Positions 780 through 64,000 of a DNA stretch of 64,000 bases are shown one piece after another. The translations under genes and the position numbers were made by a program. Source of the DNA: Verrucomicrobiota bacterium (GTDB lineage: Bacteria > Verrucomicrobiota > Verrucomicrobiia > Limisphaerales > UBA1096); contig JACNJE010000101.1 of assembly GCA_014382705.1 (NCBI GenBank), positions 9,211 through 73,210 on the forward strand, given 5' to 3'. Under the pieces are notes generated by a model. It made no database searches. It saw only the letters and a list, made by a program, of their open reading frames with translations, and had not been told where the DNA came from. Position 1 is the stretch's first letter. Every line of letters begins with the position of its first letter.

Positions 780-1735
780 GAGGCCACCCCGCTTTCCCCG
801 CGCTTGGCCAAGCCGACGAGCCGGCGGTACACCGTCCGCAAGTCCATCTCCTCCGGCTCGAGACCAGTCAGCGTCACCCCGGCCCGCTTGGCTAGGCGGA
901 AGAACTGCCGGCTTGCCCACTCTGCGGGAACAACCGCCCGCGCCTGGCCGGGTTCCTCCACGGGCGACACCTCCACGCCGGCCCGTTGCAGTGCCGCGAG
1001 GAAGGCGTCGTTGGCCGCGCCGTTCCCGTTTTTCCAGCGGAGCAAAAACGCGTGCGCCTGGCCCGCAAGCAATTCGTCGAGCGACCCAGAGGCGGCGACT
1101 TGGCCGTTCTCCAAGATGATCGTGTGACGGCAAACGTGCTCGATGTCGCCGAGCAGGTGCGTCGAGAACAGCAGCGACTTGCCGGGCCGCTGCGCGAGCG
1201 ACTTGAGCAACGCGAGCATCGCCGTGCGCCCGTCGGGATCCAGCCCCGAAGTCGGCTCGTCGAGCAACAGCAGATCCGGATCGTGCACCAGCGTCGCCGC
1301 CAGCTTGATGCGCTGGACCATGCCGGCGGAGTAATTCTCGAGCCGCCGATACCGCGCCTCCTCGAGGCCCAGTTGCGACAACAGCTCATGCGCGCGGCGC
1401 AACGCCAGCTTGCGCGGCATCCCATTCAACTCCCCGGACAGACCGACATACTCGATGCCGTTGAGGCCGGGCGTCACGCCTTCGCGCTCCGGCATGTAGC
1501 CGATGCGGCCACGCAGCCCGACGCCGTTCCTGGCCATGTCCGACCCGAACACCCGCGCCGTGCCGCCGGTGTGCCGGACAAGCCCGAGCAAAATCTTGAT
1601 CAGCGTCGATTTGCCCGCGCCGTTCTGCCCGACCAGCCCGATCGCCCCCGGCTCCACCGACAACGACACGCCGTCCAGCGCCAGCACGGAACCATACCGG
1701 TGAGTCAGGGACTCGATTTCAAAAAGCGGCGTCAC
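776..1735 (-). CDS. ABC transporter ATP-binding protein
   Basis: Walker A GQNGAGKST, signature-like YSAGMVQR and Walker B LLLLDEPTSGLD. The 603-aa track ORF is over-extended; I start at GTG 1735 (VTPLFEIESLTHRYG), just downstream of the glycosyltransferase stop. Confidence 0.88.
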   Translation of the reverse strand: MTPLFEIESLTHRYGSVLALDGVSLSVEPGAIGLVGQNGAGKSTLIKILLGLVRHTGGTARVFGSDMARNGVGLRGRIGYMPEREGVTPGLNGIEYVGLSGELNGMPRKLALRRAHELLSQLGLEEARYRRLENYSAGMVQRIKLAATLVHDPDLLLLDEPTSGLDPDGRTAMLALLKSLAQRPGKSLLFSTHLLGDIEHVCRHTIILENGQVAASGSLDELLAGQAHAFLLRWKNGNGAANDAFLAALQRAGVEVSPVEEPGQARAVVPAEWASRQFFRLAKRAGVTLTGLEPEEMDLRTVYRRLVGLAKRGESGVAS

Positions 1736-1755
1736 GAACTTGATCGGCGGGCACG

Positions 1756-2871
1756 CTACACGGGGCCTGCGTCGCGCGCCATGTTTTCCAGCCAGTCGCA
1801 GGTCGGGGGCAGCACGCTCTGCCAGCGGAACCCGAACGACCGCTCCCACGCCGCCGCGCGCATCGCGTCGTATTTCGAGGGGTCGTTGGCCAGGCCGATG
1901 ACGGCCTCGGCCAGGCTCTCCGGCGTCTCGGCTTCGCTGACGAGGCCGGTTTGCCCATGCACGGTCGAGTCCACCAGCCCGCCGACCGGGTAGACCACCA
2001 CAGGCGTGCCCATCGCGTTGGCCTCGATCACGTTGAGCCCCCACCCTTCGCGCATCGACGTGTGCAGCAGCAGGTGCGCCTTTTGCAGCTCGATGTTTTT
2101 CTCCGCGTCGTCGAGGCGACCGGCGATCGTCACGGCATCCGACAGGCCAAGCTCGCCGACCTGTGCCTCGATCCGCCATTGGTCCTGCCCCCAGCCGATG
2201 ATGGTCAACTCCGCCTCGCAGCCCTGTTCGCGCAGCAACGCGAGCGTCCGCACCACGTGATCGACCCGCTTGTTCGGGGCCAACCGAGCGAGGGCAATCA
2301 GCCGCAGCGGCTTGGCCAAGCGCTTGGCCGGGAGGGTCGGCAGCGGCTCGGTGTCGGTGCCGTTTGGCCAGACGCGCACGTCGCGCACGCCGTGGCGGAT
2401 CAACTGTTGGCGGGTTGATTCCGACACGGTCCAAAACGGAACGCCGGCGTACAGCCGCTGGAAAAACCGCTCCTGCGTCTGGCCAACCGCGCTGGTCAGG
2501 CGGCCGTAAAATGCGTGCCAGATCGGCCCAAGCACCTCGTGAATGTAGGCGACGCAGTTCGTGCCGGCCCACCACGGTGCGAACCACGGGAGGCCGTGGT
2601 GCTGGTCGATCACGAGGCCGAACGGCTCGTGTTCGCGGTGGCAGCGACGCGCATGCAAAATGGACGAACCGCGTCCGCCGCCACGGATGATGCGGATGCC
2701 GTCGATCACCGTCTCCGGCTCGGCGCCTTCAAAATCGTTCGCGAACCAAATGACCTCGTGGCCACGCCGCACGAGTTCCGCCATGTGCCGCTGCGTGACC
2801 CGTTCCGCGCCGCCGGCGAGCGGGTTCTCCGGGTCGCGCCAGTTCAGCATGAGGAAACGCAGAGGCGTCAT
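1756..2871 (-). CDS. Glycosyltransferase, GT4/GT-B fold family
   Basis: C-terminal Glycos_transf_1-like region (LLLHTSMREGWGLNVIEANAMGTPVV). ATG at 2871 (MTPLRFLMLNW) overlaps the upstream stop as ATGA. Confidence 0.85.
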   Translation of the reverse strand: MTPLRFLMLNWRDPENPLAGGAERVTQRHMAELVRRGHEVIWFANDFEGAEPETVIDGIRIIRGGGRGSSILHARRCHREHEPFGLVIDQHHGLPWFAPWWAGTNCVAYIHEVLGPIWHAFYGRLTSAVGQTQERFFQRLYAGVPFWTVSESTRQQLIRHGVRDVRVWPNGTDTEPLPTLPAKRLAKPLRLIALARLAPNKRVDHVVRTLALLREQGCEAELTIIGWGQDQWRIEAQVGELGLSDAVTIAGRLDDAEKNIELQKAHLLLHTSMREGWGLNVIEANAMGTPVVVYPVGGLVDSTVHGQTGLVSEAETPESLAEAVIGLANDPSKYDAMRAAAWERSFGFRWQSVLPPTCDWLENMARDAGPV

Positions 2872-3967: not shown

Positions 3968-4903
3968 TTAGGCCGGGCGCGTCGCGCTGGCGAGCAGCGT
4001 CTCGAAGTGCGGCTCCCCTTCCTCGCGCGACACGACGCTGATGTCGATCTCTCCAAAGCCGGCCGACTCGAGCCACTGGTGCAGTTCGCTCTCGGCAAAG
4101 CCCAGCCAGCGGTCGCCGAACAACTCGCGTGCCTGGTCAAACTTGTGGGCGACGAGGTCGAGAATCATCAACTGCCCGCCGGGCCGGAGGATGCGAAACG
4201 CGCTGGCGATCGCCTGCGCCGGTTCCTCGGCGTGGTGCAGCGCCTGGCTGAGGATTGCGAGATCCACCGACGCGTCGTCGATCGGCGGATGCTGCAGGTC
4301 GCCCTGCCGAAACTCGAGATGAGCCAAGCCGTTTCGCGCCGCCTTGGCCTGGCCAAACTTGACGATCTCCGCCGAGTTGTCCACCGCGATGACGCGTTTG
4401 CATTTGCGCGCGAGCAACTCGCTGAGCAACCCCTCGCCGGAGCCGAGGTCGGCGACGACGATCTCCGGCACGAGCCGGAGCAGCAGTTGGCCAAACGCCT
4501 GCCACGAGCGGCCCGGCCCATACACGCTGTCGAACCGGCCGGCCACATGGTTGAAATAAACAAGATCCTGATTTTCGCGCCGCTCGAGGATGCGCTTCAG
4601 GTTGACGCAGTCGGACGCGTGCTCCGGGATCTCCACCGCGCCAGCGGCCGCCAACTCCACCAACTTGCGGTTGTCCGAGCCGTTGTCCGGGGCGATGCGG
4701 TAGTAGGCGTTTTTGCCGTCGCGACTCGACGTCACGAGGCCGGCCTCCTGCATATGGCCAAGGTGCATCGAGATGCCGGACTGCCGCATATTCGTGATCT
4801 CGGTCAGCTCGCGCACCGTCAACTCGCTCTCGTTGAGCAGCGCGAGCAACCGCACCCGCGACGGGGCGGAGAGGGCGCGCAGTGACTTGAGAGTGGAGGC
4901 CAT
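3968..4903 (-). CDS. ArsR-family HTH regulator fused to a SAM-dependent methyltransferase domain
   Basis: N-terminal ArsR-like wHTH (RVRLLALLNESELTVRELTEITNMRQSGISMHLGHMQEAGLV). C-terminal methyltransferase motif I (VADLGSGEGLLSELLA) and RILRPGGQLMILD. ATG at 4903. Confidence 0.85.
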   Translation of the reverse strand: MASTLKSLRALSAPSRVRLLALLNESELTVRELTEITNMRQSGISMHLGHMQEAGLVTSSRDGKNAYYRIAPDNGSDNRKLVELAAAGAVEIPEHASDCVNLKRILERRENQDLVYFNHVAGRFDSVYGPGRSWQAFGQLLLRLVPEIVVADLGSGEGLLSELLARKCKRVIAVDNSAEIVKFGQAKAARNGLAHLEFRQGDLQHPPIDDASVDLAILSQALHHAEEPAQAIASAFRILRPGGQLMILDLVAHKFDQARELFGDRWLGFAESELHQWLESAGFGEIDISVVSREEGEPHFETLLASATRPA

Positions 4904-4955: not shown

Positions 4956-5885
4956 TCAGGCGTTGAGCACCTCGGCCGCCTTGGCCAAGCTGTCGCCGTC
5001 GCCGACGTTGAGCATCTCGGCGTCGCGATCGATCCGCCGCATGAATCCGCTCAGCGCCTTGCCCGGGCCAAGCTCGATGAATCGCGTCACGCCGCCGGCG
5101 ATCAATGCGCGGATGCACGCCTCCCATTTCACCGGCGAGGTGACTTGATCGACCATCGTGCCGGCGATCGTCCCAGCGGCGGCGTGCGCTTGGCCGGTGA
5201 CGTTGCTGTACACCGGCGTCGTCGGTTCGCGCAACTCGACCTTGGCCAAGGCCTCGGCCAAGCCGGCCTGCGCCGGTTGCATCAACGGCGAATGATACGC
5301 GCCGGCAACCGGCAACGGAATCGCGCGCTTGGCCCCGGCCGCCTTGGCCGCCTCGCAGGCGGCGTCCATTTTGTCGGCGTCGCCGGAGACGACAATTTGG
5401 CCGGGGCAATTGAGATTGGCCAAGCTCACGCCGGCCTGGTCGCAAACCGAGCGCACCGCCTCCTCGTCGAGACCGACGATCGCCGCCATCCCGCCGGCGC
5501 TCGCCTCGCACGCCTCCTGCATCAGCTCGCCCCGGCGGCGCACCACGCGAAGCCCGTCCTCAAAGCCAAGCGCATCGGCCGCGGCCAACGCGGTGAACTC
5601 ACCCAGCGACAAGCCGGCCGTCGCGTCGAACGCCAGTGACGGCACCTGCTCGCGGAGCAGTTGCAGCGCGATCCAGCCGACGAGATAAATCGCCGGTTGC
5701 GCATGCTCGGTCCGCACCAATTCCTCCTCCGGCCCGGAAAAACAAATCCCGCTCAAGCCGTAGCCCAGCACCTCGTCGGCTTGGGCAAACAACGCCTTGG
5801 CCGTGGGATGCGACTCCGCCAAGTCCCGCCCCATCCCAACCCCCTGAGCCCCCTGACCGGCAAACAGCAATGCAGTCTTCGCCAC
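4956..5885 (-). CDS. fabD: Malonyl-CoA:ACP transacylase
   Basis: LLFAGQGAQGVGMG, active-site GLSLGEF and AGAYHSPLM. Start placed at GTG 5885 (VAKTALLFAGQG), giving a typical length of about 309 aa. Confidence 0.9.
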   Translation of the reverse strand: MAKTALLFAGQGAQGVGMGRDLAESHPTAKALFAQADEVLGYGLSGICFSGPEEELVRTEHAQPAIYLVGWIALQLLREQVPSLAFDATAGLSLGEFTALAAADALGFEDGLRVVRRRGELMQEACEASAGGMAAIVGLDEEAVRSVCDQAGVSLANLNCPGQIVVSGDADKMDAACEAAKAAGAKRAIPLPVAGAYHSPLMQPAQAGLAEALAKVELREPTTPVYSNVTGQAHAAAGTIAGTMVDQVTSPVKWEACIRALIAGGVTRFIELGPGKALSGFMRRIDRDAEMLNVGDGDSLAKAAEVLNA

Positions 5886-5932: not shown

Positions 5933-6496
5933 TCAACGCGACCTGTCCGACGGCAAATCGGTGAGGTAACGCGCGTGCGTTCGGGAGGCGATGCATTTTG
6001 TGGCGGACTCTGATCCGCCGGCGGCGCGCAGCACCTCGGCAATTCCTCTGTTGGCGGTCAAATCCAGCGGAGTGCCGTACTCGCAGACTTGGTTGAGTCG
6101 AGCACCGTGGGCGATCAGGAATTTCGTCACCGCTGTGTCTTCTCGCTTGGCTGCGTTGTGCAGTGCGCTGCGGCCGTAATGGTTTCCGGTGGGCACATCC
6201 GCGCCGGCCTCGACCAGCAACCCGAGCACCGGCAGGCTGGCAAACTCCGCTGCGGCGATCAGTGGCGTGGAGCCCCGGCAATCGCGTGCATTCACGTCCG
6301 CGCCGTTGGCCAGAAGCAACCGCACGGCCCCGAGCCGGTCTTCGTCGGCGGCCCGATGCAGCGGCGTGCGGCCGAACGGGTTTCGCTGGTTCACATCGAC
6401 GCCCTTGGCCAAGAGCAGCCGGGCGGTGGCCAAGTCCGAACTGCCGACCGCCTCGTAAAGCGGCGGGTTGCCGGGAGCGTTGGTGGCATTGGCCAA
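5933..6496 (-). CDS. Ankyrin-repeat protein (about 4-5 repeats)
   Basis: Repeated G-TPLH-AA----L--V--LL--GADVN units. The track start is TTG. An in-frame signal-peptide-like ORF lies upstream beyond a TGA (see findings). Confidence 0.75.
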   Translation of the reverse strand: MANATNAPGNPPLYEAVGSSDLATARLLLAKGVDVNQRNPFGRTPLHRAADEDRLGAVRLLLANGADVNARDCRGSTPLIAAAEFASLPVLGLLVEAGADVPTGNHYGRSALHNAAKREDTAVTKFLIAHGARLNQVCEYGTPLDLTANRGIAEVLRAAGGSESATKCIASRTHARYLTDLPSDRSR

Positions 6497-6599
6497 GCTT
6501 GGCCCGCCGGTTTGCCCGGCACCTCAGCCCGCCAAGGCCCCGGCCGCTGCGGTGAGCAAAAGTCGGTGGAGGTGCGAGGCCAACATGTTTCGACGAAGG

Positions 6600-8102
6600 C
6601 TAATCCAAGGGCTTGATTGGGTAAAACTCGGGGGGGGTGCGTTGGCCGGTCATCAGTTTGCGGAGGCGCGTGACGACTTTGGGGTTGTTGGCGGCGACGT
6701 CGCTGGACTCGCTGATGTCCGCCTCCAAATCGTACAGCTGAATCTTGAGCGGGGTTTTGTTGTTTTTGCGGAGGATGTTTTGGCGGAGGGCTTTCCAGCG
6801 TCCGGCCCAGACGGCCTGCTGCCCGCCGTAGCCGGAGAATTCGCGGTAGAGGAATTTGCGCGGGCGCTGCTTTTTGCCAAGCAGCGTGTTGGCGATGCTG
6901 ATGCCGTCGATGTCGGCGGGCGTGCTGGCTTTTTCGCCGATCAAGTCGAGCAGCGTTGGCATCCAGTCCTCGAAGCCGGTCACGACGTCGGAGGTGCTGC
7001 CGGCCTTGATTTTACCGGGCCAACGGACGATGAGCGGCACGCGCACGCCGCCCTCGTACAGCGACCCCTTGAGGCCGCGCAGCGGCTTGACGCTCTCGAA
7101 GAAGTCGTAATCCACCTCGGCCTTCAGGTGCGTGGTGCCGTTGTCGGAGGTGAACACGACGATCGTGTTCTCGGCGAGGCCAAGCTCGGTGACGAGGTCG
7201 AGCACGCGGCCGATGTAGCGGTCCATCCGCGTGATCATCGCGGCGTAGGCGGCGCGCGGGGTGAAGTGCGGCGTGTAGCCGTAGCCGTTGGCCCGGGTGA
7301 ACGGCGGGTCGTCCCATTTCTGCGCGAGGTACGGCTCAAGCTCCTCGTCCGGCACGTGCAGCGCGACGTGCGGGATGAGCGTCGGGTAGTAGAGGAAGAA
7401 CGGCTTGTCGCGGTTTTTGCGGAGGAACGCCAGCGCCTGTTCGTTGATGCGGTCCGGCGCGTAGTCTTGTCCCTTGAAAATGTCGTAGCTGCGCGGGTCG
7501 GCCGGGTCGGTGCCGTTGGCCAACGAGGCATGGCCCGGCACCGGCGGGTGGTTGTTCAGCGGGACGCGCTTGAGGTTGCTCCAGAGATAATTCGGATAAT
7601 AGCTGTGCGCATGGCGCTGGCAGTTGTAGCCGAAAAACCGGTCGAAGCCTTGGTGGATCGGGTCGCCCTCCGAGCCGGGGAAGCCGAGTCCCCACTTGCC
7701 GAACGCGCCGGTGCCGTAGCCGTGGCCGCGGAGCAGCTCGGCGATCGTCTGCTCCGCTGCGGGGATGGGCCGTTGGCCTTCCGGTTTCACTTCGCCGTTG
7801 TTGCGGACGAAGGCGTGGCCGGGGTGCTTGCCGGTCATGAGCACGCAGCGCGACGGCGCACAGACGGCGTTGCCGGAGTAGTTGCGCGTGAAGCGCATCC
7901 CCTGCCTGGCCAAGCGGTCGAGGTTGGGGGTCTTGATTTTTTTCTGGCCGTAGCTGCCCAACTCAGCAAAGCCCAAGTCGTCGGCCATGATGAAAATGAT
8001 GTTCGGCTTGGCCGCCTCGGCCGGCTTGGCCAAGGCCAGCATCGCGGCAGCGGCCAAGGCCAGCTTGGCCAAGCGGGAGAGTCCGGTTTGGAAGGGTTGC
8101 AT
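6600..8102 (-). CDS. Sulfatase (arylsulfatase A family, Cys-type)
   Basis: Signal peptide, IIFIMADDLG and the formylglycine motif CAPSRCVLMTG. ATG 8102 (MQPFQTGLSRLAKLALAAAAMLA) chosen over the longer track ORF. Confidence 0.9.
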   Translation of the reverse strand: MQPFQTGLSRLAKLALAAAAMLALAKPAEAAKPNIIFIMADDLGFAELGSYGQKKIKTPNLDRLARQGMRFTRNYSGNAVCAPSRCVLMTGKHPGHAFVRNNGEVKPEGQRPIPAAEQTIAELLRGHGYGTGAFGKWGLGFPGSEGDPIHQGFDRFFGYNCQRHAHSYYPNYLWSNLKRVPLNNHPPVPGHASLANGTDPADPRSYDIFKGQDYAPDRINEQALAFLRKNRDKPFFLYYPTLIPHVALHVPDEELEPYLAQKWDDPPFTRANGYGYTPHFTPRAAYAAMITRMDRYIGRVLDLVTELGLAENTIVVFTSDNGTTHLKAEVDYDFFESVKPLRGLKGSLYEGGVRVPLIVRWPGKIKAGSTSDVVTGFEDWMPTLLDLIGEKASTPADIDGISIANTLLGKKQRPRKFLYREFSGYGGQQAVWAGRWKALRQNILRKNNKTPLKIQLYDLEADISESSDVAANNPKVVTRLRKLMTGQRTPPEFYPIKPLD

Positions 8103-8552
8103 CTGGCCGGGCAGCCTCACACAGCGGCGGGTGGCGAACAAGAAATCCTGAACGACCGGACGGCAAAAAAAAGCCGGCCAAGCCTCAGCTTGACCGGCCA
8201 AAGTTCTTTCCGGAGCGCCAAGGTTGGGGAAACCTTCAAGCTCTCCGGTGAATTGCCAGATTGATGCGATGTCAGCAAAAGTAGACATCCACGACAGCAC
8301 TCGCATCAGACACCGTGCGAACTGCGGCGAGTAGTCATCGGGCCGGTTTTTTTGTCAAGCACTTTTTTTGAGTGCCTACGACTCCCTTCCCACGATTATC
8401 GCGCATTCGTTGCCGCAAAACGGTAACTTTTGACACGGTAAGCACGTATTTTCGGGTCGGCATTGCGACTGCTCTGACACCGGCACGTTTGAGCTACGCC
8501 GTTGACGAAGGCGGCTTTTGGCCTATGTTTCCCACGTCAAATTGAATCGACC

Positions 8553-9980
8553 ATGAAAAAGACACTCATCGCAACGTTGCTCGTCTCGGCGGTCTCGCTT
8601 AGCCAAGCGGCGGATTGGCCCAACTGGCGCGGCCCGGATTACAACGGCATCTCGCAGGAAACGGACTGGTTCGAGAAATGGGGCTCGAGCGGCCCCAAGC
8701 GGCTTTGGAACGCCTCGGTCGGCACCGGCTTTGCCGCCGTCTCGGTGGCGGACGGGAGGGTGTTCACGATGGGCAACAAGTCCAACAAGGACACGGTCTA
8801 CGCGCTGGACGAGGCCACCGGCGAGACGCTCTGGAAATACACCTACAGTTCGCCACTCTCCCCCAACTCCTACGACGGCGGCCCCAACGCCACCCCGACG
8901 GTGGACGGCGACCGGGTTTACACCTTCAGCAAGGACGGGCAGGTATATTGCCTCGAGGCGGCCACGGGGAAGCGGGTCTGGTACAAAAAACTGGTCAACA
9001 CGTACAAGGTAAAGAAACCAACCTGGGGTCACGCCAGTTCGCCTTACATCACCGGGGATCGGGTGATCCTCAACGCCGGGACGCACGGCTTGGCGCTGGA
9101 CAAACACACCGGCAATTTGCTTTGGAAAACCGGAACCACCGCCGCCGGTTACGCAACGCCGGTGCCGTACGATCACTTGGGCACTCCGGCGTTGGTGATC
9201 TTCGGCAAATCCAAGGCTTACGGGGTCCGAATCCGCGATGGTGCCAAGCTGTGGAGCAAGACGTTCCAGGACCGGTACCAGACCAACGCCGCCGACCCGA
9301 TCCTTTACAACGGCAACATTTTCCTCACCACCAACTCCAAGGACGGGGAGATGATCCAGTTGCGGGGCAGTGCCGGGTCGTCGGTCCACACGCTGTGGAA
9401 AAACCGGGACATGAGCATCCATTTCAACCCGCCGGTGGTGGTGGGCGACTACCTGTACGGCTTTGACGGGCGCGTCAACAACAGCGACGACCTGCGCTGC
9501 ATCAACCTGAAAACCGGCGACACCGAGTGGTCAAAAAGCTCGATCCCGTGCGGCTCGATCATGGCCTCCGACGGCAAGCTGATCGTCCTGAGCCGCAAGG
9601 GCGACCTCTACGTCGCCGAGGCGTCGCCGAGCCGTTTCAAGCAACTGGCCAAGTCCAAGGTCCTCACCGGCACCTGCTGGACGGTGCCGGTCCTGGCCAA
9701 CCGCAGCCTCTATGTCCGCAACTCGCGCGGCACGCTCTACAAGCTGCAGATGAGCGAGCAAGTCGTCGAGCCGCAGCCGCTGGCCGTCAGCCTCAACGGT
9801 GCCCAGCTCGAGTTCTCTTGGCCGGCAAAGGGCGACTTCATCCTTGAGTCCACCGTTGCGCTTGGCCAAGCGGCCGACTGGAGCGAGGTCGGCAGCGGCA
9901 CCGCCAAGGAGGACAACCGCAACGTCGTCCGCGTCCGGCCAAGCGCGGCTCAACAATTCTTCCGGCTCCGCAGCGAATGA
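8553..9980 (+). CDS. Secreted PQQ-like beta-propeller repeat protein (BamB-like fold)
   Basis: Signal peptide [31 protein letters not shown] lead-in and repeated 'V.alD..TG...W' blades. C-terminal module of about 70 aa ending QQFFRLRSE. Confidence 0.85.
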
Positions 9981-11719: not shown

Positions 11720-11888
11720 CCCCCGCTTGGCCAAGCGGCGAGAGCAAACCCGATTTATACCCCGAAGGGGCTTGGCCAAGTGCGAGGTAGGGACGGCTGT
11801 TCCCAGCCGTCCGTGTCGTGCGGCGCGCCTTGTGCTTTGAAATACGCCCTCGGCGCGCTGGGACAGCTCGCCCTGCCTTCAATACGCC

Positions 11889-11932: not shown

Positions 11933-12020
11933 GTGGCGTCAGCTGGGCTTGGCCGAGCGGACTCGCCCCTCAAACACCGCGCTTCGCTAAGGCGACCGCA
12001 ATCAGAATCGTGTACGGAAA

Positions 12021-52223: not shown

Positions 52224-52271
52224 GTGAGCCGTCGGCCGTGAGCGGTGAGCCGTAACCGCGACTAAAACTCC

Positions 52272-57400: not shown

Positions 57401-58301
57401 CTCGGTGGCCGAGCAGGTGCGCGACATGGTCAAGGGCTCCGAGGCGACGCGCTTCAACCGGCGCGACCGCCGCGTGCCGGTTGTCGTGCGCCTGGCCGAG
57501 AAGGATCGCGAACAGGTCGCCGACGTCGGCAAACTCACCATCAACCCCGGCGGCGACACGCCGATCCCGCTCAACTCGATCGCCAAGCTGACGGTCGGCG
57601 AGGGGCCAAGCGAGATCCGGCGCATCGACGGCAAGCGGGTCGCGCTGGTGCAGGCGAACATCGGCGCCGGGTCGCTGGGGACGGCGGTCGATGCGGCCAG
57701 GAGCACGCTGAAGGAGGGGATTGACCTGCCGATTTACATGCAGTTCTTCATCACCGGACAGAACCGGGAATGGGAACGCAGCCGAACGAGCCTCTACCTC
57801 GCGCTTGGCCTGAGCCTGTTCCTCGTCTACGTGATCATGGCGTCGCAGTTCGAGTCACTCGTGCAGCCGTTCATCATCATGTTCACCATCCCGATGGCGT
57901 TCGTCGGCACGGTGCTGGGGCTCAAGGGACTTGGCTTCAACCTCTCGGTGGTGGTGTTCCTCGGCATGATCATGCTGGCTGGCATCGTGGTGAACAACGC
58001 CATCGTGCTGGTGGACTACGCCAACCGGCTCCGCGGCCGAGGCCTGGCCCTGCGCGAGGCGATCATCCAGGCCGGTTGCGTGCGCCTGCGCCCGATTTTG
58101 ATGACCACCGCCACCACCGTGCTGGGCCTGCTGCCGATGGCGCTTGGCCTCGGGGACGGCGCGGAGATCCGCACGCCGATGGCCGTCGCCGTGATCTGCG
58201 GGCTGCTGACCTCCACCGTGCTGACGCTGCTGGTCATCCCGACGATCTATTATTTGTTCGGCCTCGCCGGCGAGCGCCTGTTCCAGTCGAGGGAGGAATA
58301 G
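54444..58301 (+). CDS. RND efflux permease (1285 aa) with a DUF805-like membrane insertion of about 200 aa in the TM6-TM7 loop
   Basis: AcrB-type N- and C-terminal halves. The insert contains VDYWAEAV...IQRVHDRGRSAWWLFALFPIF...PGQAGDNRYG. Confidence 0.9.
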   Translation: MESPHHKPNFTTDRPVAVLMVFLAAVVFGFFSFKQLPMTLMPEMSYPTLTVRTEYPGAAPEEVENDVSRPIEEALGVVNGLNEISSISRAGVSDVVLEFVWGTPMVDAIQNTLEKLDLVYLPREAEKPLLLHYDPSLDPVMELSLSGSGLRYRGDEGQRRLRRIAELQVKRAIEPITGVAAARVRGGLEEEIHVLIDEAKLQRVNLSINDVIRRLRAENINAAGGRISEGGAEYMIRTVNEYQRLEEIEDTIVFRREGREIRVKDLGQVVHGQRDREMLTHTNGEVSVQIDIYKEADANMVDVAGRVRALVGKPVFKGKPETPGDGAAGRSGSGRRSSRSGGIQREEFLSMFRGPTLSAKLNSEEQAKLRVVADRSIFINNSISEVKQTAYYGGMLAIIVLLLFLRDLRTTAIIAVSIPISILVTFAPLNILDVSLNIMSLGGLAMGIGMLVDSSIVVLESIYRCREEGDSTRNAAIRGTTEVRGAVIASTLTSICVFFPMVFVEGLAGQVFSDLGLTVVTSLIAALIVAVLFIPMLASRTGFQLKAGAGMVGHALGSIRGRLSLRAFWLLFFLPLGLLLLVMIGVDFLYADWALENNDNPRGPTEVDYWAEAVAVFTMWRAFCIIPFYIALIQRVHDRGRSAWWLFALFPIFEALFLPGQAGDNRYGAAGSGQLRLAKLWGAFRSFDESRQRNARLFLIASPYYALRLAVALLLELIGLTVYWVIRAVAAVAYGVYWVIRKIGAALGQALSRLGRDHAAGEAVDTANGLYPRLIRWALASPAAMLALIIGCFGLTWWVGKQLETELLPEVHQSEFTFEASLPVGTPLEETVKLLGGVEQKILDSMEDGESKIDALLVMYGFDTTNMKRSDEGEHSAKFKVLLKPTDNPKRTEQEVIARLRDLFAEVPDVTTRVTRPVLFSSKKPVVIQINGDDLPELKQYSDEATAMLSKKPELADVEPTLRSGAPEVQITYDRQQIIRHGLNLNSVAEQVRDMVKGSEATRFNRRDRRVPVVVRLAEKDREQVADVGKLTINPGGDTPIPLNSIAKLTVGEGPSEIRRIDGKRVALVQANIGAGSLGTAVDAARSTLKEGIDLPIYMQFFITGQNREWERSRTSLYLALGLSLFLVYVIMASQFESLVQPFIIMFTIPMAFVGTVLGLKGLGFNLSVVVFLGMIMLAGIVVNNAIVLVDYANRLRGRGLALREAIIQAGCVRLRPILMTTATTVLGLLPMALGLGDGAEIRTPMAVAVICGLLTSTVLTLLVIPTIYYLFGLAGERLFQSREE

Positions 58302-58447
58302 CCAAGCGGGGAGGCATCCCGGAGACGCCCTTATATTCGCACGTGATGTAACAAAATGGACGTTGCGAAAGTAGTGTTGAAGAGCCGTGGTTGTTCATGC
58401 GTTTTGCCATGCCCGCTTGGCCAAGCGCTTGGCCAGGGCCGATAGCG

Positions 58448-61400
58448 ATGCAAGCCAACAAATTAGCCACTGAGATCACGCGGCTGTCCCTGAGCCGCAA
58501 GGTCACGGTGTTCGTCATGTTCCTGACGATCCTGGCCGTTGGCATGATCGCAGTGAACCGGCTGCCGCTGGAAAAATATCCCAGGGGCTGGGAGGGGCAT
58601 TACATCCGCATCCGCACCGGCTGGAGCTCCGGCGTGCCACAGGAGGCGATGGAAAAAATAGGCCTCCCGATGGAGGAGGAACTCAGCACCGTCCGCGGCA
58701 TCCAGTCGATGAGGACGCGCAGCTCGCGATCCGCCGCCGAGGTCAGCCTGCATTTCAAGCGCGACACCGACATGGACGTCGCCTACCGGGAGGTACGCGA
58801 CCGGATGGAGCGCGCCTCCCTGCGTTTCCCCGAGGGGGTGGATGATTATCGGATTTACAAGTACGGCGGCACCAGCTCGACCGTCTGCCGCATGAGCATC
58901 CGCTACAACGACGACACCGACCTTTATGCCAATGTTGAGAAACACGTCATTTGGCCCCTGCAACGGATCGACGGGGTGGCGGATGTCAACGTGCGGATAC
59001 ACCGGAAGGAAATCCAGATCGAGGTGGACAAGGATCGCGCCGAGGCGTACGGCCTGAGCATCAGCCGGCTGTCGAGCCGGTTGCGCGGGGATAATTTCAC
59101 CCTGTCGAGCGGCACCGTGATCGATGGCGGGAAAAAGTACCTGCTCAAGTCCGCCAGCACCTTTCACTCGATGCAGGAACTGGCAGACATCCCGTTGACC
59201 GACACGGTCTACCTCCGGGATGTCGCCACCATCAAGTATGCGGAGAACGACATTTACCAGCACACCGGACGGTGGAACCGGATGCAGTCCGCCCGGGTGG
59301 ATGTCGCCAAGGAAAGCGAGGCCAACACCGTGGAGGTGGGCCGCAAGGTCGCCGCCGCCATCAAGGAAATCCAGAAGAACCCCGAGTTGGCCGACTACGA
59401 GATTTACCCGTACCAGAACTACGGGGACATCATCAAGACACAGCTCAACAGCCTGACGAACAACGGCCTTTACGGCGCGTTGATGGCCGGGGTGGTGCTC
59501 TATTTTTTCCTCCGCCAATTCCGCTTGACGATGATCATCGCGCTGGCGATTCCGCTCTGCCTGTTCATCTCCATGACGGTCATGTTCTTCGCGGGTGACA
59601 CGCTGAACATGACCTCGATCCTCGGGCTGGTGATCTGCGTCGGACTGCTGGTGGACAACTCCGTGGTGGTCGCGGAGAACATTCACCGGCATTACCAGTC
59701 CGGCCTGTCGCGCAGGGAGGCCTGCATGAGGGGGGTCGGGGAGATCGGGCTGGCAGTCACCACGGCCACGCTCACCACGGTCATCGTGTTTCTTCCGTCG
59801 GTGCTGGTTGGGGGCGAGATGCGGTTCATGCTGTATCAACTGGCGCTGCCGGTGGTGTCGGCGCTGCTGGCGTCGCTGGGCACGGCCATCATTTTTATTC
59901 CCCTCTCGGTTTACCTGACCGTGAACTCGATGCGCCCCGACGCGAACGTCCGGCGCAAACGCATGCGGGATCACGTCAGGAACGCTCTGGCGACGGCCTA
60001 CAACTGGACGTTTGAGCGGTTCAACAACGGGTACAACAAGGCCCTGAACTACTATCTCGGGCGGCGGCTGGACCTGGCGTTCATCCTGATCGTGCTGCTT
60101 TCCGCCACTTATTTTTACGGGCTCAAAAAAATCGAGGTCACCGGGCACCGCGACAACGACCGCGAAGAATTCCATATGCGAATGCGCTTTCCCGATCACT
60201 TCACCATCGACGAAAAGAACGCCTATTTCCAACAGCTGGAAAACATCGTGGAGACGAACAAGGTGCAGCTCGGCATTTCCAGCTACCGGGTGGAGTTCAG
60301 CAACTCCTCGCACGGGGAGTTTGAGGCCAATTACGCGCGGGAGAAAGCCAAGGAAGCCCTCCCAACAGAGGAGGTGCCGGACAAGCTGTTTTCGCTGTTG
60401 CCCGAGATCCCGGGGGTCAGGGTCTACTACTCCGGCATGGACACCGGCGGTGAAAAACGGAATGACGAACGATCCCGGCACCATATCCGGCTGGTCGGTG
60501 ACGATCTCCGGCAACTGGAGGAAGCCGGCGAGATGCTGAGGCCGGTGTTCGAGAATATTCCCGGGGTGCTGTCACTGGAGGACAAGGATTCGGACGATGC
60601 CCCGAACGAGATGGCGCTGGTGGTTGACCGGGACCGGGCCAGCTCCATTGGGATCAGCCCAGACTCCATCGGCGGCGTGGTCAGCAGCGCGCTGCGCGGC
60701 CGGTCGCTCTCGCGGTTCAACAGCAACGGCCGGCAGATCCCGGTTCTCATGCGATTCAGCGAGGAGGACCGGGCCGAGCTGGATGACATCAACAACTACC
60801 GCGTCCGGAGTGATGACGGGCGCTACGCCTCCATCGGCTCGCTCACCCGGCCGGCGATGTTGAAGAGCGAGTCCTCCATCAACCGATCCGACAAGAAGGT
60901 CAGCTACTACATCAGCATGAAGCTCAAGTCGGGGGAGGAACGCGAAGCCCGCAAGGCCATTCATGAGGCGCAAAAAAACATCGACCTGCCCGAGGGCGTC
61001 TCCTTCAGCGAGATCAAGATGACGTTCGACGACGGCGAAATCAGCAGGAGCCTGGTCGCCATGGCGCTCTCAATCGTCTTCATCTACATGCTCATCGCGT
61101 TCCTGTTCGAGAGCCTGCTGATGCCGCTCTCCATCGTGCTGACGATCCCGCTGGCGGCCATCGGGTCGATCTGGGTGCATTACCTGACCGGGACGGAGAT
61201 CGATGACATGGGCATCGTCGGCGGCATCCTGTTGATCGGGGTGGTGGTGAACAACGGCATCGTGCTCATCGACTACGTCAACCGGCTCCGCCTGGGCGGC
61301 ATGGAGCGCACCAAGGCCCTGCTGCTGGCGACGCGCCACCGATTCCGCCCGATCGTAATGACGGCGCTGACGACCATCTTCGGCATGATCCCGCTGACGT

Positions 61401-61597
61401 TTTCCGACGCGGAGATGGGGCGCAGCTTCGACAGCTTTGGGCTCATGATCATCGGCGGAATGGCCTCGGCCACGCTGTTCACCCTGCTGGCGGTGCCGGT
61501 GTTTTACACGCTTATCGACGACGCCCAGCAGGCCCTTCGCAACACCCTGGCCACCGTCCTCGGCCGAAGCACGCCCAAGCCAAGCGCCGCCCGGTAA
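58448..61597 (+). CDS. RND efflux permease (paralog 2)
   Basis: 1049 aa from ATG 58448; ITRLSLSRKVTVFVMFLTILAVG, GLLVDNSVVVAENI and VVVNNGIVLIDY. Confidence 0.9.
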   Translation: MQANKLATEITRLSLSRKVTVFVMFLTILAVGMIAVNRLPLEKYPRGWEGHYIRIRTGWSSGVPQEAMEKIGLPMEEELSTVRGIQSMRTRSSRSAAEVSLHFKRDTDMDVAYREVRDRMERASLRFPEGVDDYRIYKYGGTSSTVCRMSIRYNDDTDLYANVEKHVIWPLQRIDGVADVNVRIHRKEIQIEVDKDRAEAYGLSISRLSSRLRGDNFTLSSGTVIDGGKKYLLKSASTFHSMQELADIPLTDTVYLRDVATIKYAENDIYQHTGRWNRMQSARVDVAKESEANTVEVGRKVAAAIKEIQKNPELADYEIYPYQNYGDIIKTQLNSLTNNGLYGALMAGVVLYFFLRQFRLTMIIALAIPLCLFISMTVMFFAGDTLNMTSILGLVICVGLLVDNSVVVAENIHRHYQSGLSRREACMRGVGEIGLAVTTATLTTVIVFLPSVLVGGEMRFMLYQLALPVVSALLASLGTAIIFIPLSVYLTVNSMRPDANVRRKRMRDHVRNALATAYNWTFERFNNGYNKALNYYLGRRLDLAFILIVLLSATYFYGLKKIEVTGHRDNDREEFHMRMRFPDHFTIDEKNAYFQQLENIVETNKVQLGISSYRVEFSNSSHGEFEANYAREKAKEALPTEEVPDKLFSLLPEIPGVRVYYSGMDTGGEKRNDERSRHHIRLVGDDLRQLEEAGEMLRPVFENIPGVLSLEDKDSDDAPNEMALVVDRDRASSIGISPDSIGGVVSSALRGRSLSRFNSNGRQIPVLMRFSEEDRAELDDINNYRVRSDDGRYASIGSLTRPAMLKSESSINRSDKKVSYYISMKLKSGEEREARKAIHEAQKNIDLPEGVSFSEIKMTFDDGEISRSLVAMALSIVFIYMLIAFLFESLLMPLSIVLTIPLAAIGSIWVHYLTGTEIDDMGIVGGILLIGVVVNNGIVLIDYVNRLRLGGMERTKALLLATRHRFRPIVMTALTTIFGMIPLTFSDAEMGRSFDSFGLMIIGGMASATLFTLLAVPVFYTLIDDAQQALRNTLATVLGRSTPKPSAAR

Positions 61598-61699
61598 CCC
61601 CGGTAACCTTTCCCGCCCGGCGGGTGTAGATGCACGGGGAGTGTCCCGGCCCGGGAAACATTGACTCTTTCCCGGCTTGGTTTCACCTTCTTCGTTACT

Positions 61700-61723
61700 G
61701 CTTGGCCAAGCGCTTGGCCAAGC
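61700..61723. repeat. Perfect tandem dimer of the 12-mer palindrome (GCTTGGCCAAGC x2)
   Basis: GCTTGGCCAAGCGCTTGGCCAAGC ends 10 nt before the ATG of the third RND gene. Similar dimers, partly degenerate, lie at 2310..2330, 44561..44580 and 58415..58437. Confidence 0.95.
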
Positions 61724-61732
61724 GGCAGATCA

Positions 61733-64000
61733 ATGGAAACACACGAACTGGCGGCCCGGATCACGCGATTGTCCCTCAATCGCCCGGTGACGATGTTTGT
61801 GCTGTTCCTCACGATCATCATCGTCGGGGTGATCGCCGCCAGCCGGCTCAAGCTCGAGCTGTTCCCGCAAGGCTTCGAGGGCCACTCGCTGCAGGTGCGC
61901 GTGCCGTGGAACGCCTCCGTGCCGCAGGAGGTGATGGACAAGCTGGCCCTCCCGCTCGAGGAGGAGCTGAGCACGGTGCGGGGCGTCGACTCGATGCGCT
62001 CCTCCTGCTCCTCCCGGGGCGCCTCGGTCTACCTGAACTTCAAGCAAGGCACCGACATGGCCGTGGCCTACCGCGAGGTGCGCGACCGGGTGGAGCGGGC
62101 CAGGCTGCGCTTCCCCGACGACGTCGAGCGGGCGTACGTCTACAAGATGGACGCCTCCGGGTTCCCGGTCTGCATGATCGGCATCGCCTACGAGACGGAC
62201 GGCGACCTGTACGACCTGGTCAACAAGCATATCATCATGCCGCTCTCGCGCCTCGACGGCGTGGCCAACGTCGAAACCCGGGGCCTGATGGAGAAGGAGA
62301 TCATCATCGAGGCCGACAAGGATCGCACCGAGGCGTACGGCCTGAACATTTACGACCTTTCCCGACAGTTGCGCGGCGACAACTTCACGCTGGCGAGCGG
62401 CAACGTCCGCGACGGCGGCAAGAAATATCTCCTTAAATCCTCCAGCGCCTACCGGACAATGGAGGAACTGCGCCACCTGCCGTTGAGCACCAATGTGGTT
62501 CTCAGCGACGTCGCCGTGCTGAAGTACGAGCCGGAGGAACGGCGCTTCGCCGCCCGCGTGAACGGCAAGCAGGCGATGATGGTGACGGTCGTCAAGGAGA
62601 GTCAGGCCAACACCGTCGAGGTCTGCGACCTTATCGAGGCCGAGGTGGAGCGGATTCAGGCCAACCCGGCGTTGAAGGGCTTCGACCTGAACATCCACAT
62701 GAACCAGGGGAGCATCGTGATGGAGCAGCTCAACACCCTGTTCACCAACGGCCGGATCGGCGCCTTCTTCGCCGCCTGCGTGTTGTACATCTTCCTGCGC
62801 CGGGCGCGGATGACGCTGATCATCGCCGGGGCCATCCCGCTCTGCCTGTTCATCGCCGTGGCCACGATGTACTTCGCCGGCGAGAGCCTGAACCTGCTGA
62901 CCATCCTCGGCCTGGTGCTGTGCGTCGGGCTGCTGGTGGACAACTCCGTGGTGGTCGCCGAGAATATTCAGCGTCATTACCAAGCCGGCATGAGCCGCCG
63001 CGACGCCTGCATCAAGGGCGTGCAGGAGATCGGCCTGGCCATCACCACGGCCACGTTCACCACGGTGATCGTGTTCCTGCCGGCCGTGCTGGTGGAGGGC
63101 GAGATGCGTTTCTTCATGATGCGCCTGGCCCTGCCGGTGGTAGTGGCGCTGCTTGCCTCGCTGGGCGTGGCGCTGGCGTTCATCCCGCTCTGCGTCTACC
63201 TGACGCTCTCCTCCCGGACGGGCTCACCGTCCGCTTGGCCAAGCCGCATGGCAGCGACGTTCCGTGTCCGGCTTGGCAGGCTGTACGAGGCATCGTTCGG
63301 CCGGTTCAGCCGCGGATACAACCGGGCGCTTGGCTACTACTTGAAGCGCCGGCTGGACTTGGGCTTCCTGCTCATCGCCCTTCTGGCCGCCACGTTTTTT
63401 TACGCCTACGAGAAGGTCGGCTTCTCGCCCCAGCAGGAGGAGGAGATGTCGTCGTTCCACCTGTCGTTCCGCTTTCCCAGCCGATTCACCTTCGACGAGC
63501 GCACCGAATACTTCAAGGAGGTCGAGAGAATACTCAACGCACGGAAGGACCACTACGAGCTGGACGGGTTCATTGTCTTTTACAGCACCTGGTTCGGCTC
63601 GCTGGAGGGGTGGTTCGCGCGGAACCGGGAGGGCATCGTGCCGACACGCGAGGTGGCCGAGCGAATCTACAAGGAACTGCCCGAGCGGCCCGGCCTGAAG
63701 ATTCATTATCAGCGCTTCGGCGAGGAGGAGGAACGGCAGGACCGCAAGGAACGGCATTACGTCCGGCTGGTTGGCGACGACCCCGAGCTGCTTGAGAATA
63801 TCGCCGACGACCTCAAGCCGATCTTTCGCAACATTCCGGGCGTGGTCGCCCTGCAGGAGCGCGAGGACGATACCCCCAACGAGCTGGCGCTAATCGTCGA
63901 CCGCGACCGCGCCAGCGCCATCGGGGTGAACCCCTCCACCCTCGCTGGCATGGTCGGCAACGCCCTGCGCGGCAGCACCCTCCCGCGCTTCAGCAGCGAC
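61733..64000 (+). CDS. RND efflux permease (paralog 3; 3' end outside the window)
   Basis: Absent from the ORF track because it has no stop in the window. Hand translation from ATG 61733 is open to 64000 and parallels paralog 2 (ITRLSLNRPVTMFVLFLTIIIVG, GLLVDNSVVVAENI). Confidence 0.85.
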   Translation, partial: METHELAARITRLSLNRPVTMFVLFLTIIIVGVIAASRLKLELFPQGFEGHSLQVRVPWNASVPQEVMDKLALPLEEELSTVRGVDSMRSSCSSRGASVYLNFKQGTDMAVAYREVRDRVERARLRFPDDVERAYVYKMDASGFPVCMIGIAYETDGDLYDLVNKHIIMPLSRLDGVANVETRGLMEKEIIIEADKDRTEAYGLNIYDLSRQLRGDNFTLASGNVRDGGKKYLLKSSSAYRTMEELRHLPLSTNVVLSDVAVLKYEPEERRFAARVNGKQAMMVTVVKESQANTVEVCDLIEAEVERIQANPALKGFDLNIHMNQGSIVMEQLNTLFTNGRIGAFFAACVLYIFLRRARMTLIIAGAIPLCLFIAVATMYFAGESLNLLTILGLVLCVGLLVDNSVVVAENIQRHYQAGMSRRDACIKGVQEIGLAITTATFTTVIVFLPAVLVEGEMRFFMMRLALPVVVALLASLGVALAFIPLCVYLTLSSRTGSPSAWPSRMAATFRVRLGRLYEASFGRFSRGYNRALGYYLKRRLDLGFLLIALLAATFFYAYEKVGFSPQQEEEMSSFHLSFRFPSRFTFDERTEYFKEVERILNARKDHYELDGFIVFYSTWFGSLEGWFARNREGIVPTREVAERIYKELPERPGLKIHYQRFGEEEERQDRKERHYVRLVGDDPELLENIADDLKPIFRNIPGVVALQEREDDTPNELALIVDRDRASAIGVNPSTLAGMVGNALRGSTLPRFSSD

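Follow-up and report, generated by a model that had tools for sequence, protein, structure and literature searches.

A HIP-like palindromic word iterated through the DNA of uncultured marine Verrucomicrobia

A stretch of 64,000 nucleotides from an uncultured Verrucomicrobiota bacterium (GenBank assembly GCA_014382705.1, contig JACNJE010000101.1, positions 9,211 to 73,210; hereafter the window) carries about one copy per kb of a single short palindrome, whose consensus cgCTTGGCCAAGcg is perfectly self-complementary over 12-14 bases. Our results show that the word is very probably a lineage-wide signal at the level of the DNA, comparable to the highly iterated palindromes (HIPs) of cyanobacteria, and neither a mobile element nor a coding by-product nor an artefact. 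To account for the data, a sequence-specific force must operate on double-stranded DNA throughout the genome of a single clade.

The exact 12-mer GCTTGGCCAAGC was found 34 times between positions 802 and 63244, while 0.02 copies are expected from 100 dinucleotide-preserving shuffles and 0.011 from a first-order Markov chain, which amounts to an over-representation of about 1,700- to 3,000-fold. The 8-mer core TTGGCCAA occurs 74 times against 1.29 expected (57-fold; 1,156 per Mb) and is by far the most frequent palindromic 8-mer of the window, the runner-up being CGCCGGCG with 15 copies. Longer forms comprise 61 copies of the 10-mer CTTGGCCAAG, 21 of the 14-mer CGCTTGGCCAAGCG, six 16-mers, including those at 11723, 14948, 29123, 45737 and 46938, and one 18-mer (CCCGCTTGGCCAAGCGGG, 18200-18217). 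A first-pass annotation of the window had given about 34 12-mers, about 61 10-mers, about 73 cores and a chance expectation of about 0.01 per 64 kb; exact counting reproduced the 12-mers with their coordinates, the 10-mers, the 16-mer positions and the 18-mer at 18200, raised the cores to 74, and placed the expectation in the same range. Its four tandem dimers fared less well, as only the one at 61700 (61700-61724) is exact. Those that it had placed at 2310, 44561 and 58415 (beginning at 2310, 44560 and 58414 in our coordinates) consist of one exact unit next to a degenerate or partial one, as does a fifth at 41538-41560.

To describe the boundaries of the word, we analyzed inexact copies and flanking bases. 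The observed-to-expected ratio for 12-mers declines smoothly from 3040 for exact copies to 83, 6.5, 2.4, 1.3 and 1.0 at one to five mismatches. The central GGCC is nearly invariant, and 8-mers with a single deviation differ mainly at the outer positions (24, 12, 5, 2, 4, 7, 9 and 23 variants along the core). This is the profile that a gradual accumulation by point mutation would leave; a graded mismatch load has been described for uptake sequences (PMC1939737), and one-off variants of the cyanobacterial HIP1 likewise deviate mainly at the outer positions (PMC4390886). Outward from the core, the flanks hold C in 90%, G in 66% and C in 59% of the copies, with no signal past three to four bases on either side. 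The repeat families around the palindrome share the palindrome alone, their similarity ending at about 14 bp. Since both repeat families and flank logos have only the word in common, the copies do not belong to one dispersed element, in agreement with the first-pass annotation. An assembly artefact is ruled out because the same palindrome is present at the same density in independent assemblies (Logan, ENA, JGI, Tara and NCBI metagenome-assembled genomes, MAGs).

Within genes, the word acts at the DNA level and overrides the choice of codons and amino acids. Among the 53 genic cores, 39 are read as TTG-GCC-AAG (Leu-Ala-Lys), 12 as CTT-GGC-CAA (Leu-Gly-Gln) and two as TGG-CCA. Leu-Ala-Lys is written as TTGGCCAAG in 31 of 42 cases, TTG accounting for 14% of the Leu codons, and Leu-Gly-Gln as CTTGGCCAA in 11 of 18 cases, with CTT making up 7% of the Leu and CAA 34% of the Gln codons. 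Shuffling synonymous codons within each gene left 6.5 ± 2.3 genic cores, compared to the 52 observed at that stage, and 0.5 12-mers compared to 20. The tripeptide Leu-Ala-Lys itself is frequent, with 42 occurrences against about 10 by our rough estimate from amino-acid composition (Leu-Ala-Arg, 14; Leu-Ala-Glu, 12; Leu-Ala-Gln, 6). At the site in YchF, three motif-bearing genomes encode Leu-Ala-Lys, and motif-free relatives encode Val-Ala-Lys, Val-Ser-Arg, Ile-Ser-Lys or Ile-Ala-Arg; at both copies in Obg the residues vary even between close relatives. We conclude that, where positions are tolerant, the word alters the protein rather than the protein giving rise to the word. An origin as a by-product of coding or codon usage was thus rejected on the basis of the synonymous shuffle, the codon tables and the amino-acid differences in motif-free relatives.

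The first-pass annotation had noted copies both in genes and in spacers, and with gene coordinates corrected by public gene calls from contigs of several independent metagenome assemblies bearing identical proteins, 53 cores are genic and 21 intergenic. The latter lie in 5.5 kb, and their density of 3.8 per kb is about four times that of genes (0.9 per kb; binomial p = 6e-7). The 14-mers are 13-fold denser between genes, where 12 of the 21 are located (p = 2e-8). Divergent spacers have the highest density (9 copies in 1.55 kb, 5.8 per kb), followed by convergent (5 copies, 3.4 per kb) and co-directional ones (7 copies, 2.9 per kb). In our reading, the full target is a palindrome of 14 bp or more that coding constraint truncates in genes. 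No significant heterogeneity of gap lengths was detected along the window, the largest gap of 3.8 kb being as expected, by our own estimate, for 73 gaps with a mean of 855 bp.

To assess the distribution of the word, related loci were retrieved by protein similarity and by the motif itself. The window has a G+C content of 63% and encodes sulfatases, three AcrB-type pumps, ankyrin-repeat proteins, a class II ribonucleotide reductase (RNR) and an rplU-rpmA-obg-ychF cluster. Its YchF is 89% identical to that of one uncultured Verrucomicrobia MAG (MAG 15, QOAX01000086.1; locus L004) and 86% identical to that of another (a Tara Oceans bin; locus L005), with at most 74% identity to other Verrucomicrobia. 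L005 contains 21 cores in 15 kb and L004 eight in 10 kb. In 77 further loci obtained through this protein (1.19 Mb) there are 19 cores, or 0.016 per kb, and no 10-mer, and 29 other Verrucomicrobia loci hold 0.02 cores per kb. When metagenomes were scanned for pairs of 12-mers lying no more than 30 bp apart, at least 118 contigs were recovered, whose record names point to marine surveys. Among the matches listed, and with the two ascertained copies of each contig discounted, additional cores number 0.56-1.0 per kb in contigs of 50-63% G+C (about 0.82 Mb) and about 0.1 per kb in the few contigs below 50% G+C; the overall density is about 0.6-2.4 per kb in about 0.85 Mb of these marine contigs and in the two related genomes. 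The word thus marks a widespread marine clade of Verrucomicrobia that spans a range of base compositions. The highest density was seen in one JGI contig (JGI26061J44794_1000436, 1-13402), with 32 cores in 13.4 kb (2.4 per kb) and flanks that are all unique. Another Verrucomicrobia locus (L008, MGR_bin444) was considered as a carrier with variant flanks and rejected, its eight cores forming one local tandem array: at 95-400 it has eight tandem copies of a 43-bp unit, each with ggTTGGCCAAcc, unrelated to the dispersed word. A scan of IMG/VR yielded no paired motifs and single 14-mer matches at chance level, with the exception of one phage contig (IMGVR_UViG_3300032087_002358, 1-13670). This contig encodes a large terminase, a DnaB-type helicase and an exonuclease, carries eight cores in 13.7 kb (0.6 per kb), five of them with an AAGC flank, and probably represents a phage or prophage of the motif-bearing lineage.

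We next compared orthologous sites in a three-way alignment of window positions 40003-49111 with L004 (949-10073; 88% DNA identity) and L005 (78%). Genic sites differ by single substitutions, mostly at the outer T/A positions, for example TTGGCCAA versus CTGGCCAA, TTGGCCAG or ATGGCCAT. Intergenic sites differ by insertions or deletions of 10-12-bp units: in the spacer after ychF, the window and L005 carry about one unit more than L004, and the spacer after the reductase gene contains a single unit in the window and a pair in each of the two relatives, the second unit of the L004 pair being degenerate. As contigs retrieved by the motif pair are biased, ascertained pairs were masked for the conservation counts and protein-retrieved loci were counted apart. 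Pairwise counts are not independent, the same site entering several contig pairs, and the cleanest figure is that of the window and L005. In this ascertainment-free comparison at about 78% identity, 14 of 21 sites are kept against an 8-mer background of 0.18 (p = 9e-7). Among the matches listed, exact cores, all 8-mers and one-mismatch variants are kept at 66%, 17% and 23% for a DNA identity of 72-80%, at 57%, 33% and 36% for 80-88%, at 77%, 63% and 59% for 88-95%, and at 87%, 85% and 84% for 95-100%. Where the tripeptide is conserved at 72-88% identity, again among the matches listed, all nine bases are identical at 83% (Leu-Ala-Lys) and 90% (Leu-Gly-Gln) of the motif sites, compared to 38% when every conserved tripeptide is counted and 9-18% where these two tripeptides are encoded otherwise than by the motif. 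Synonymous positions inside the word are therefore constrained.

The first-pass annotation had proposed a lineage-specific, HIP1-like iterated palindrome, and over-representation, synonymous shuffle, restriction to a clade and orthologous conservation all support this view. As the best overall explanation we propose a HIP-type genome word that is bound by a dimeric reader, tags self DNA and spreads by biased fixation, a combination to which we assign a probability of roughly 0.4. As our comparisons show, genic copies arise by point substitution where the protein tolerates Leu-Ala-Lys or Leu-Gly-Gln, and intergenic copies reach the full 14-18 bp and vary by insertion or deletion of 10-12-bp units. 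Once established, copies are kept by constraint on the DNA sequence itself, synonymous positions included. The duplex word may be read by a sequence-specific homodimeric protein, with one CGCTTGG half-site per monomer; the observed footprint, palindromic, graded and about 14 bp in length, is what such a protein would leave, and it exceeds most methyltransferase targets. The word could then tag DNA of the own lineage in DNA uptake and/or homologous recombination. A word with this self-tag function would spread by biased fixation, and the tag might persist through molecular drive and weak selection, as proposed for the uptake signal sequences (USS) and DNA uptake sequences (DUS) and, in recent work, for HIP1 of cyanobacteria. 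We put the specific self-tag mechanism forward tentatively, with the odds somewhat against it. We prefer it because of the USS/DUS-like dynamics, the transformation and Chi evidence for HIP1, the presence of the word on a phage contig, and the lower number of cores in two putative acquired islands of the window (5 versus 11.9 expected, P = 0.02). HIP1 has been found to raise transformation efficiency and may act like Chi (bioRxiv 10.1101/2024.09.10.611283), and it correlates with the DNA-uptake machinery (bioRxiv 10.64898/2026.06.24.733823).

Comparison with known systems places the word closest to the HIPs. It resembles HIP1 (GCGATCGC) and the alternate HIPs (GGGATCCC, CAGGCCTG and others) in being a short, GC-rich, perfect palindrome with extended forms that overrides codon use, in an over-representation of at least 15-fold, in its presence within and between genes, in variants that deviate at outer positions, in its restriction to a lineage with absence from some relatives, and in orthologous sites kept above background. 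Its density of about 1,150 cores per Mb falls within the 300-2700 per Mb of HIP1. Quasi-periodic spacing at 10-90 kb is a further feature ascribed to HIPs. The word is not HIP1 proper, being CTTGGCCAAG in a verrucomicrobial host; it is unrelated in sequence, occurs in another phylum, is longer (12-14 bp), is enriched and extended between genes and forms 12-bp tandem dimers. In contrast to HIP1, which is tied to DmtA/DmtC, a cognate methyltransferase has not turned up so far, either in the window or among the related contigs (about 0.95 Mb), a sample too small to exclude one. With the USS of Pasteurellaceae and the DUS of Neisseriaceae it shares a frequency of about one per kb, a strong core with weaker flanks, the graded mismatch profile, genic copies in the least costly frames, a non-coding excess and its presence across the related species of one clade. 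Unlike the asymmetric USS and DUS, the present word is a perfect palindrome. Chi (RecBCD/AddAB) is likewise an over-represented short word, and the palindrome could similarly mark self DNA for recombination; unlike it, Chi has no symmetry and is oriented with replication. Within the extended arm AAGCGG lies AGCGG, the Chi sequence of Bacillus subtilis, which we regard as a lead only. In the literature, the word matched only primers or unrelated sequences, and nothing was found on palindromes of Verrucomicrobia, although coverage was incomplete and an earlier mention in a MAG paper is possible.

HIPs have been studied almost only in cyanobacteria, and after about 30 years their function is unresolved, with methylation-linked repair, chromosome structure and DNA uptake all still considered. 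An unrelated word in another phylum that shows the same population-genetic signature, made up of over-representation, overridden codon use, conserved sites and restriction to a clade, offers an independent natural replicate of the phenomenon, in which one can ask whether the associations of HIP1 with orphan methyltransferases and DNA-uptake machinery hold generally. That the HIP phenomenon evolved a second time outside cyanobacteria, with a word read by a dimeric uptake or recombination protein and possibly without DNA methylation, is conceivable but on balance doubtful. If this were true, a second independent origin with an identified reader would help to settle what HIPs are for. Since motif-rich, possibly eroding (L004) and motif-free relatives exist, a comparison of gene contents could identify this reader. 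In practice, the word also offers an inexpensive means of binning the contigs of this marine lineage, and possibly its phages, and could flag recently acquired DNA within such genomes.

Several observations weigh against the proposed self-tag or limit its scope. At 95-100% identity, among the matches listed, motif sites turn over at about the rate of 8-mers in general (87% versus 85% conserved), so that the constraint is invisible on short time scales. Weak purifying selection and restoration by biased repair or conversion fit the conservation data alike. In L004, the closest relative, only 4 of the 11 window sites are retained, which is the background level (0.41), and its 10 kb contain a single 12-mer. 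Several sites shared by the window and L005 are mutated or deleted in it, and by parsimony five of its differences are losses; the word may be eroding in this lineage. Support for the intergenic enrichment comes from the 64-kb window, and a cruder analysis of the metagenome contigs (among the matches listed) did not show it (0.94 versus 0.81 per kb); we consider the latter test unreliable because longest-ORF calls can start at the TTG of the motif and ascertained pairs were masked. No reader protein, competence gene or recombination factor could be linked to the motif, and, with competence genes not surveyed, none was obvious in the window. To our knowledge, natural competence has not been reported for these uncultured bacteria. 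Finally, the known uptake sequences and Chi lack the symmetry of this word.

An alternative, though an unlikely one, is a methylation-coupled repair ratchet as in Elhai's model for HIP1, in which an orphan methyltransferase acting on GGCC or TGGCCA, together with methyl-directed or very-short-patch-type repair, turns near-matches into the word as a neutral by-product. The invariant centre GGCC/TGGCCA is a classical target of methyltransferases and restriction enzymes, and one-off variants deviate mainly at the outer positions, as in HIP1 (PMC4390886). Neither sequence is avoided in the window (GGCC, 796 copies versus about 640 by a rough base-composition estimate), which makes unprotected restriction activity on them unlikely. 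Restoration would also explain long-term persistence beside ordinary short-term change. In the study by Hiraoka et al., a candidate 5-methylcytosine (m5C)-type modification of TGGCCA with no match in REBASE is described for a marine MAG, and five Verrucomicrobia MAGs, which may not belong to the present clade, are listed as having neither methylated motifs nor methyltransferase genes (PMC8919816). However, the conserved word of 12-14 bp exceeds usual methyltransferase targets, one-mismatch variants do not lie preferentially opposite the motif in orthologues (4-13%, among the matches listed), and the variants show no excess of C-to-T products at the central GGCC.

The search for the enzymes of such a ratchet gave no candidate. 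The window proteins include no DNA methyltransferase, Vsr, REP-associated tyrosine transposase (RAYT; REP, repetitive extragenic palindromic element) or other transposase, the sole methyltransferase being an ArsR-fused small-molecule type. Likewise, when 5,337 ORFs of the motif-bearing contigs (about 0.95 Mb, a small and redundant sample) were screened by sequence motifs and by phmmer with M.HaeIII, Dcm, Dam, Vsr, CcrM and M.TaqI as queries, followed by Pfam checks of candidates, no DNA methyltransferase (m5C-, Dam-, CcrM- or TaqI-type) or Vsr emerged. Candidates with NPPY/DPPY patterns turned out to be unrelated proteins, and one weak phmmer match was a PQQ beta-propeller protein. As there may be perhaps one such gene per genome of several Mb, we regard this search as uninformative rather than negative.

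Less probable still is a structural role of the kind suggested for HIP1 by Xu, Lawrence and Durand, in which a nucleoid-associated or chromosome-organising protein would bind the word and selection would maintain it for chromosome folding. Sites are conserved much as HIP1 sites have been reported to be (PMC5861425), a dimeric DNA-binding protein would fit the palindromic 14-bp footprint, and density peaks in spacers, above all in divergent promoter regions. Yet a structural role does not predict the enrichment of copies on a phage, and no candidate protein was found.

We further considered transcribed stem-loops of the REP type, which would terminate transcription or protect mRNA 3' ends, with genic copies as decayed or incidental forms. 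Like REPs and the bacterial interspersed mosaic elements (BIMEs) associated with RAYTs, the word is a short palindromic repeat capable of hairpin formation, with an excess in spacers and occasional tandem copies. Three long copies (11723, 18200 and 46938) start 0-4 nt past stop codons and the copy in the ychF/aminotransferase spacer 3 nt past one, 14-mers concentrate between genes, and 16-mers, the 18-mer and the exact dimer form stable stems (-6.8, -10.1 and -21 kcal/mol, respectively). The RNA hairpin suggested by the first-pass annotation thus exists, but it is weak in the common forms: the 12-mer (-1.1 kcal/mol) and the 14-mer (-3.5 kcal/mol) fold no better than shuffled sequences, the latter being equalled or beaten by 41 of 200 shuffles. 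No T-run follows the long copies whose context was inspected, and the highest density is that of divergent spacers, in which transcripts do not end. For these reasons, most copies cannot be accounted for by a terminator or REP-like hairpin, and the features of intrinsic terminators are missing. In addition, 53 of the 74 copies (72%) are genic with conserved synonymous sites, whereas REPs are extragenic, imperfect, 20-40 nt long and have a GTAG-type head; the present copies are perfect and 8-18 bp long, and neither a Y1 transposase nor a RAYT is encoded among the window proteins. A structure would moreover tolerate compensatory changes, and yet the sequence itself is fixed. A search of the window against Rfam matched tRNA-Glu only, and the palindrome corresponds to no known RNA family. 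Taken together, this explanation is very unlikely.

A miniature mobile element or insertion scar, in which a transposase or nuclease inserts 12-bp units, is scarcely credible: it could account for the tandem dimers and for the intergenic unit differences between relatives, which replication slippage explains equally well, but it is largely refuted for genic copies, which align to relatives without indels, differ by substitutions and have strongly skewed frames (39:12:2), and it is at odds with the smooth mismatch gradient, the lack of a transposase or RAYT in the window, and copies with no shared flanks, terminal repeats, target duplications or, as a miniature inverted-repeat transposable element would have, conservation beyond about 14 bp.

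The individual copies are given below in window coordinates; as palindromes they have no strand, and some gene starts are from our own gene calls. At the left end, a 12-mer GCTTGGCCAAGC at 802-813 encodes TTG-GCC-AAG (Leu-Ala-Lys) in an ABC-transporter gene (776-1687(-)), and a glycosyltransferase gene (1756-2871(-)) contains an imperfect dimer of GCTTGGCCAAGC and the degenerate unit GCTTGGCCGGGA at 2310-2333. Four genic copies follow: an 8-bp core TTGGCCAA in the frame xTT-GGC-CAA (4487-4494) and, all read as Leu-Ala-Lys, a 10-mer CTTGGCCAAG (4980-4989), the 12-bp variant CCTTGGCCAAGG (5240-5251) and an 8-bp core (5416-5423). An ankyrin gene (5933-6586(-)) has a 10-mer CTTGGCCAAG at 6404-6413 and an 8-bp core at 6489-6496, and the adjacent sulfatase gene (6600-8306(-)) has the 12-bp variant CGTTGGCCAACG at 7514-7525, a 10-mer CTTGGCCAAG at 8025-8034 and a 12-mer GCTTGGCCAAGC at 8063-8074. 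A 14-mer CGCTTGGCCAAGCG at 9859-9872 is read CTT-GGC-CAA-GCG (Leu-Gly-Gln-Ala) in gene 8553-9980(+), and a 12-mer GCTTGGCCAAGC at 9981-9992 forms codons 2-5 of a prepilin-type gene (9977-10735(+)).

The convergent spacer 11720-12020 contains the 16-mer CCGCTTGGCCAAGCGG (11723-11738), which starts 4 nt past a stop codon, and a 10-mer CTTGGCCAAG (11771-11780). It is followed at 12021-16031(-) by a defence-like pair of slightly lower GC with two cores, in which an nSTAND1 NTPase (835 aa) adjoins a TIR and DUF4062 protein (498 aa); the 14-bp variant GCCTTGGCCAAGGC lies in the NTPase gene (13051-13064) and the 16-mer GCGCTTGGCCAAGCGC in the TIR-domain gene 14535-16031(-) (14948-14963). The divergent spacer 16032-16201 has a 10-mer CTTGGCCAAG (16118-16127) and a 14-mer CGCTTGGCCAAGCG (16146-16159), and the next gene copy is the 12-bp variant CCTTGGCCAAGG at 16272-16283. 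The longest copy, the 18-mer CCCGCTTGGCCAAGCGGG, occupies 18200-18217 in the convergent spacer 18200-18291, directly past a stop codon. The neighbouring gene 18292-20937(-) encodes an ankyrin-repeat protein of 881 aa and has internal DNA repeats with periods of 393-396 and 681 bp. It contains 10-mers CTTGGCCAAG at 19006-19015 and 20590-20599, two 10-bp copies within an internal repeat (19120-19129 and 19801-19810) that are duplicates of each other, and an 8-bp core at 20675-20682. Two genic copies lie beyond it, a 10-bp one in the rare Trp-Pro frame (21116-21125) and an 8-bp core (21341-21348).

A 14-mer CGCTTGGCCAAGCG is located at 22662-22675 in the divergent spacer 22639-22709, a 12-bp copy at 24449-24460 in the Leu-Gly-Gln frame of a Na+/H+ exchanger gene, and a genic 8-bp core at 24525-24532. 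Three copies share the divergent spacer 26189-26311, delimited by our own calls of the gene starts: an 8-bp core (26234-26241), a 14-mer CGCTTGGCCAAGCG (26253-26266) and a 10-bp copy (26293-26302). Another 10-bp copy lies in the co-directional spacer 27185-27334 (27196-27205) and one is genic (28958-28967); the 16-mer GCGCTTGGCCAAGCGC at 29123-29138 is read Arg-Leu-Ala-Lys-Arg. An aminotransferase gene (30842-31930(-)) carries 12-bp copies at 31108-31119 and 31408-31419 and 10-bp copies at 31160-31169 and 31508-31517. After a genic 8-bp core at 32003-32010, the divergent spacer 32821-33183 holds a 14-bp copy (32909-32922) and an 8-bp core (33011-33018), and a Mur-ligase gene holds copies of 12 bp (33837-33848), 10 bp (33972-33981), 8 bp (34177-34184) and, in the Leu-Gly-Gln-Ala frame, 14 bp (34292-34305).

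The region 34615-40000 is motif-poor and looks like an integrated island. It begins with tRNA-Glu(CTC), followed by a ParE-like toxin (34718-35086), an HNH endonuclease (35087-35617(-)) and a sulfatase gene (35826-37310(+)) with a 14-bp copy at 35866-35879. An ORF-poor spacer of 1.07 kb (37311-38384) then contains a 10-bp copy (37791-37800) and a 14-bp copy (38067-38080), and precedes the gene of a collagen-repeat protein (38385-39920(-)) in DNA of 54% GC.

In the region aligned to L004 and L005, a sulfatase gene (40014-41519(-)) has a 10-bp copy at 41331-41340, present in L005 and gone in L004, and the 12-bp variant CCTTGGCCAAGG at 41444-41455, whose core is present in both. The divergent spacer between the sulfatase gene and rplU (41520-41659) contains an imperfect dimer of the degenerate TTGGCCAT and a 14-mer CGCTTGGCCAAGCG (41538-41560). 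In obg, a 14-bp copy at 42672-42685 encodes Leu-Gly-Gln-Ala, residues that differ in L004, L005 and motif-free relatives, and a 10-bp copy lies at 43346-43355; the 10-bp Leu-Ala-Lys copy in ychF (44020-44029) is present in both L004 and L005. An imperfect dimer of the partial unit GGCCAAGC and a 12-mer GCTTGGCCAAGC (44560-44579) fills the 24-bp spacer between ychF and an aminotransferase gene, and about one unit (10 aligned bases) of it is deleted in L004. The 16-mer CCGCTTGGCCAAGCGG at the 3' end of the aminotransferase gene (45737-45752) is again present in both relatives. Two genic 8-bp cores follow at 45761-45768 and 46022-46029, the second of which is present in L005, and a 16-bp copy (46938-46953) lies in the spacer 46888-46954, one base downstream of the RNR stop codon.

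The RNR gene itself has a 14-bp copy at 49460-49473 and, in its N-terminal part according to the public gene call, a 10-bp copy at 49931-49940. Further copies are found in a cupin gene (12 bp, 50323-50334), in another gene (10 bp, 51821-51830), in the co-directional spacer 52224-52307 (14 bp, 52275-52288) and in bacA (10 bp, 52709-52718). The gene at 54444-58301 encodes an AcrB-type resistance-nodulation-division (RND) pump of 1285 aa with a DUF805 domain inserted at residues 558-669, and it carries a 12-bp copy (56470-56481) and a 14-bp copy (56680-56693). An imperfect dimer of a 14-bp copy and the near-unit GCTTGGCCAGGG is located downstream of it (58414-58437; co-directional spacer 58302-58447). 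The exact tandem dimer, GCTTGGCCAAGC GCTTGGCCAAGC G, at 61700-61724 in the co-directional spacer 61598-61732 would form a 12-bp RNA stem, and the last copy, of 12 bp (63233-63244), is genic in the rare Ala-Trp-Pro-Ser frame. Two more AcrB paralogues are encoded in this part of the window, at 58448-61597 and from 61733 onward.

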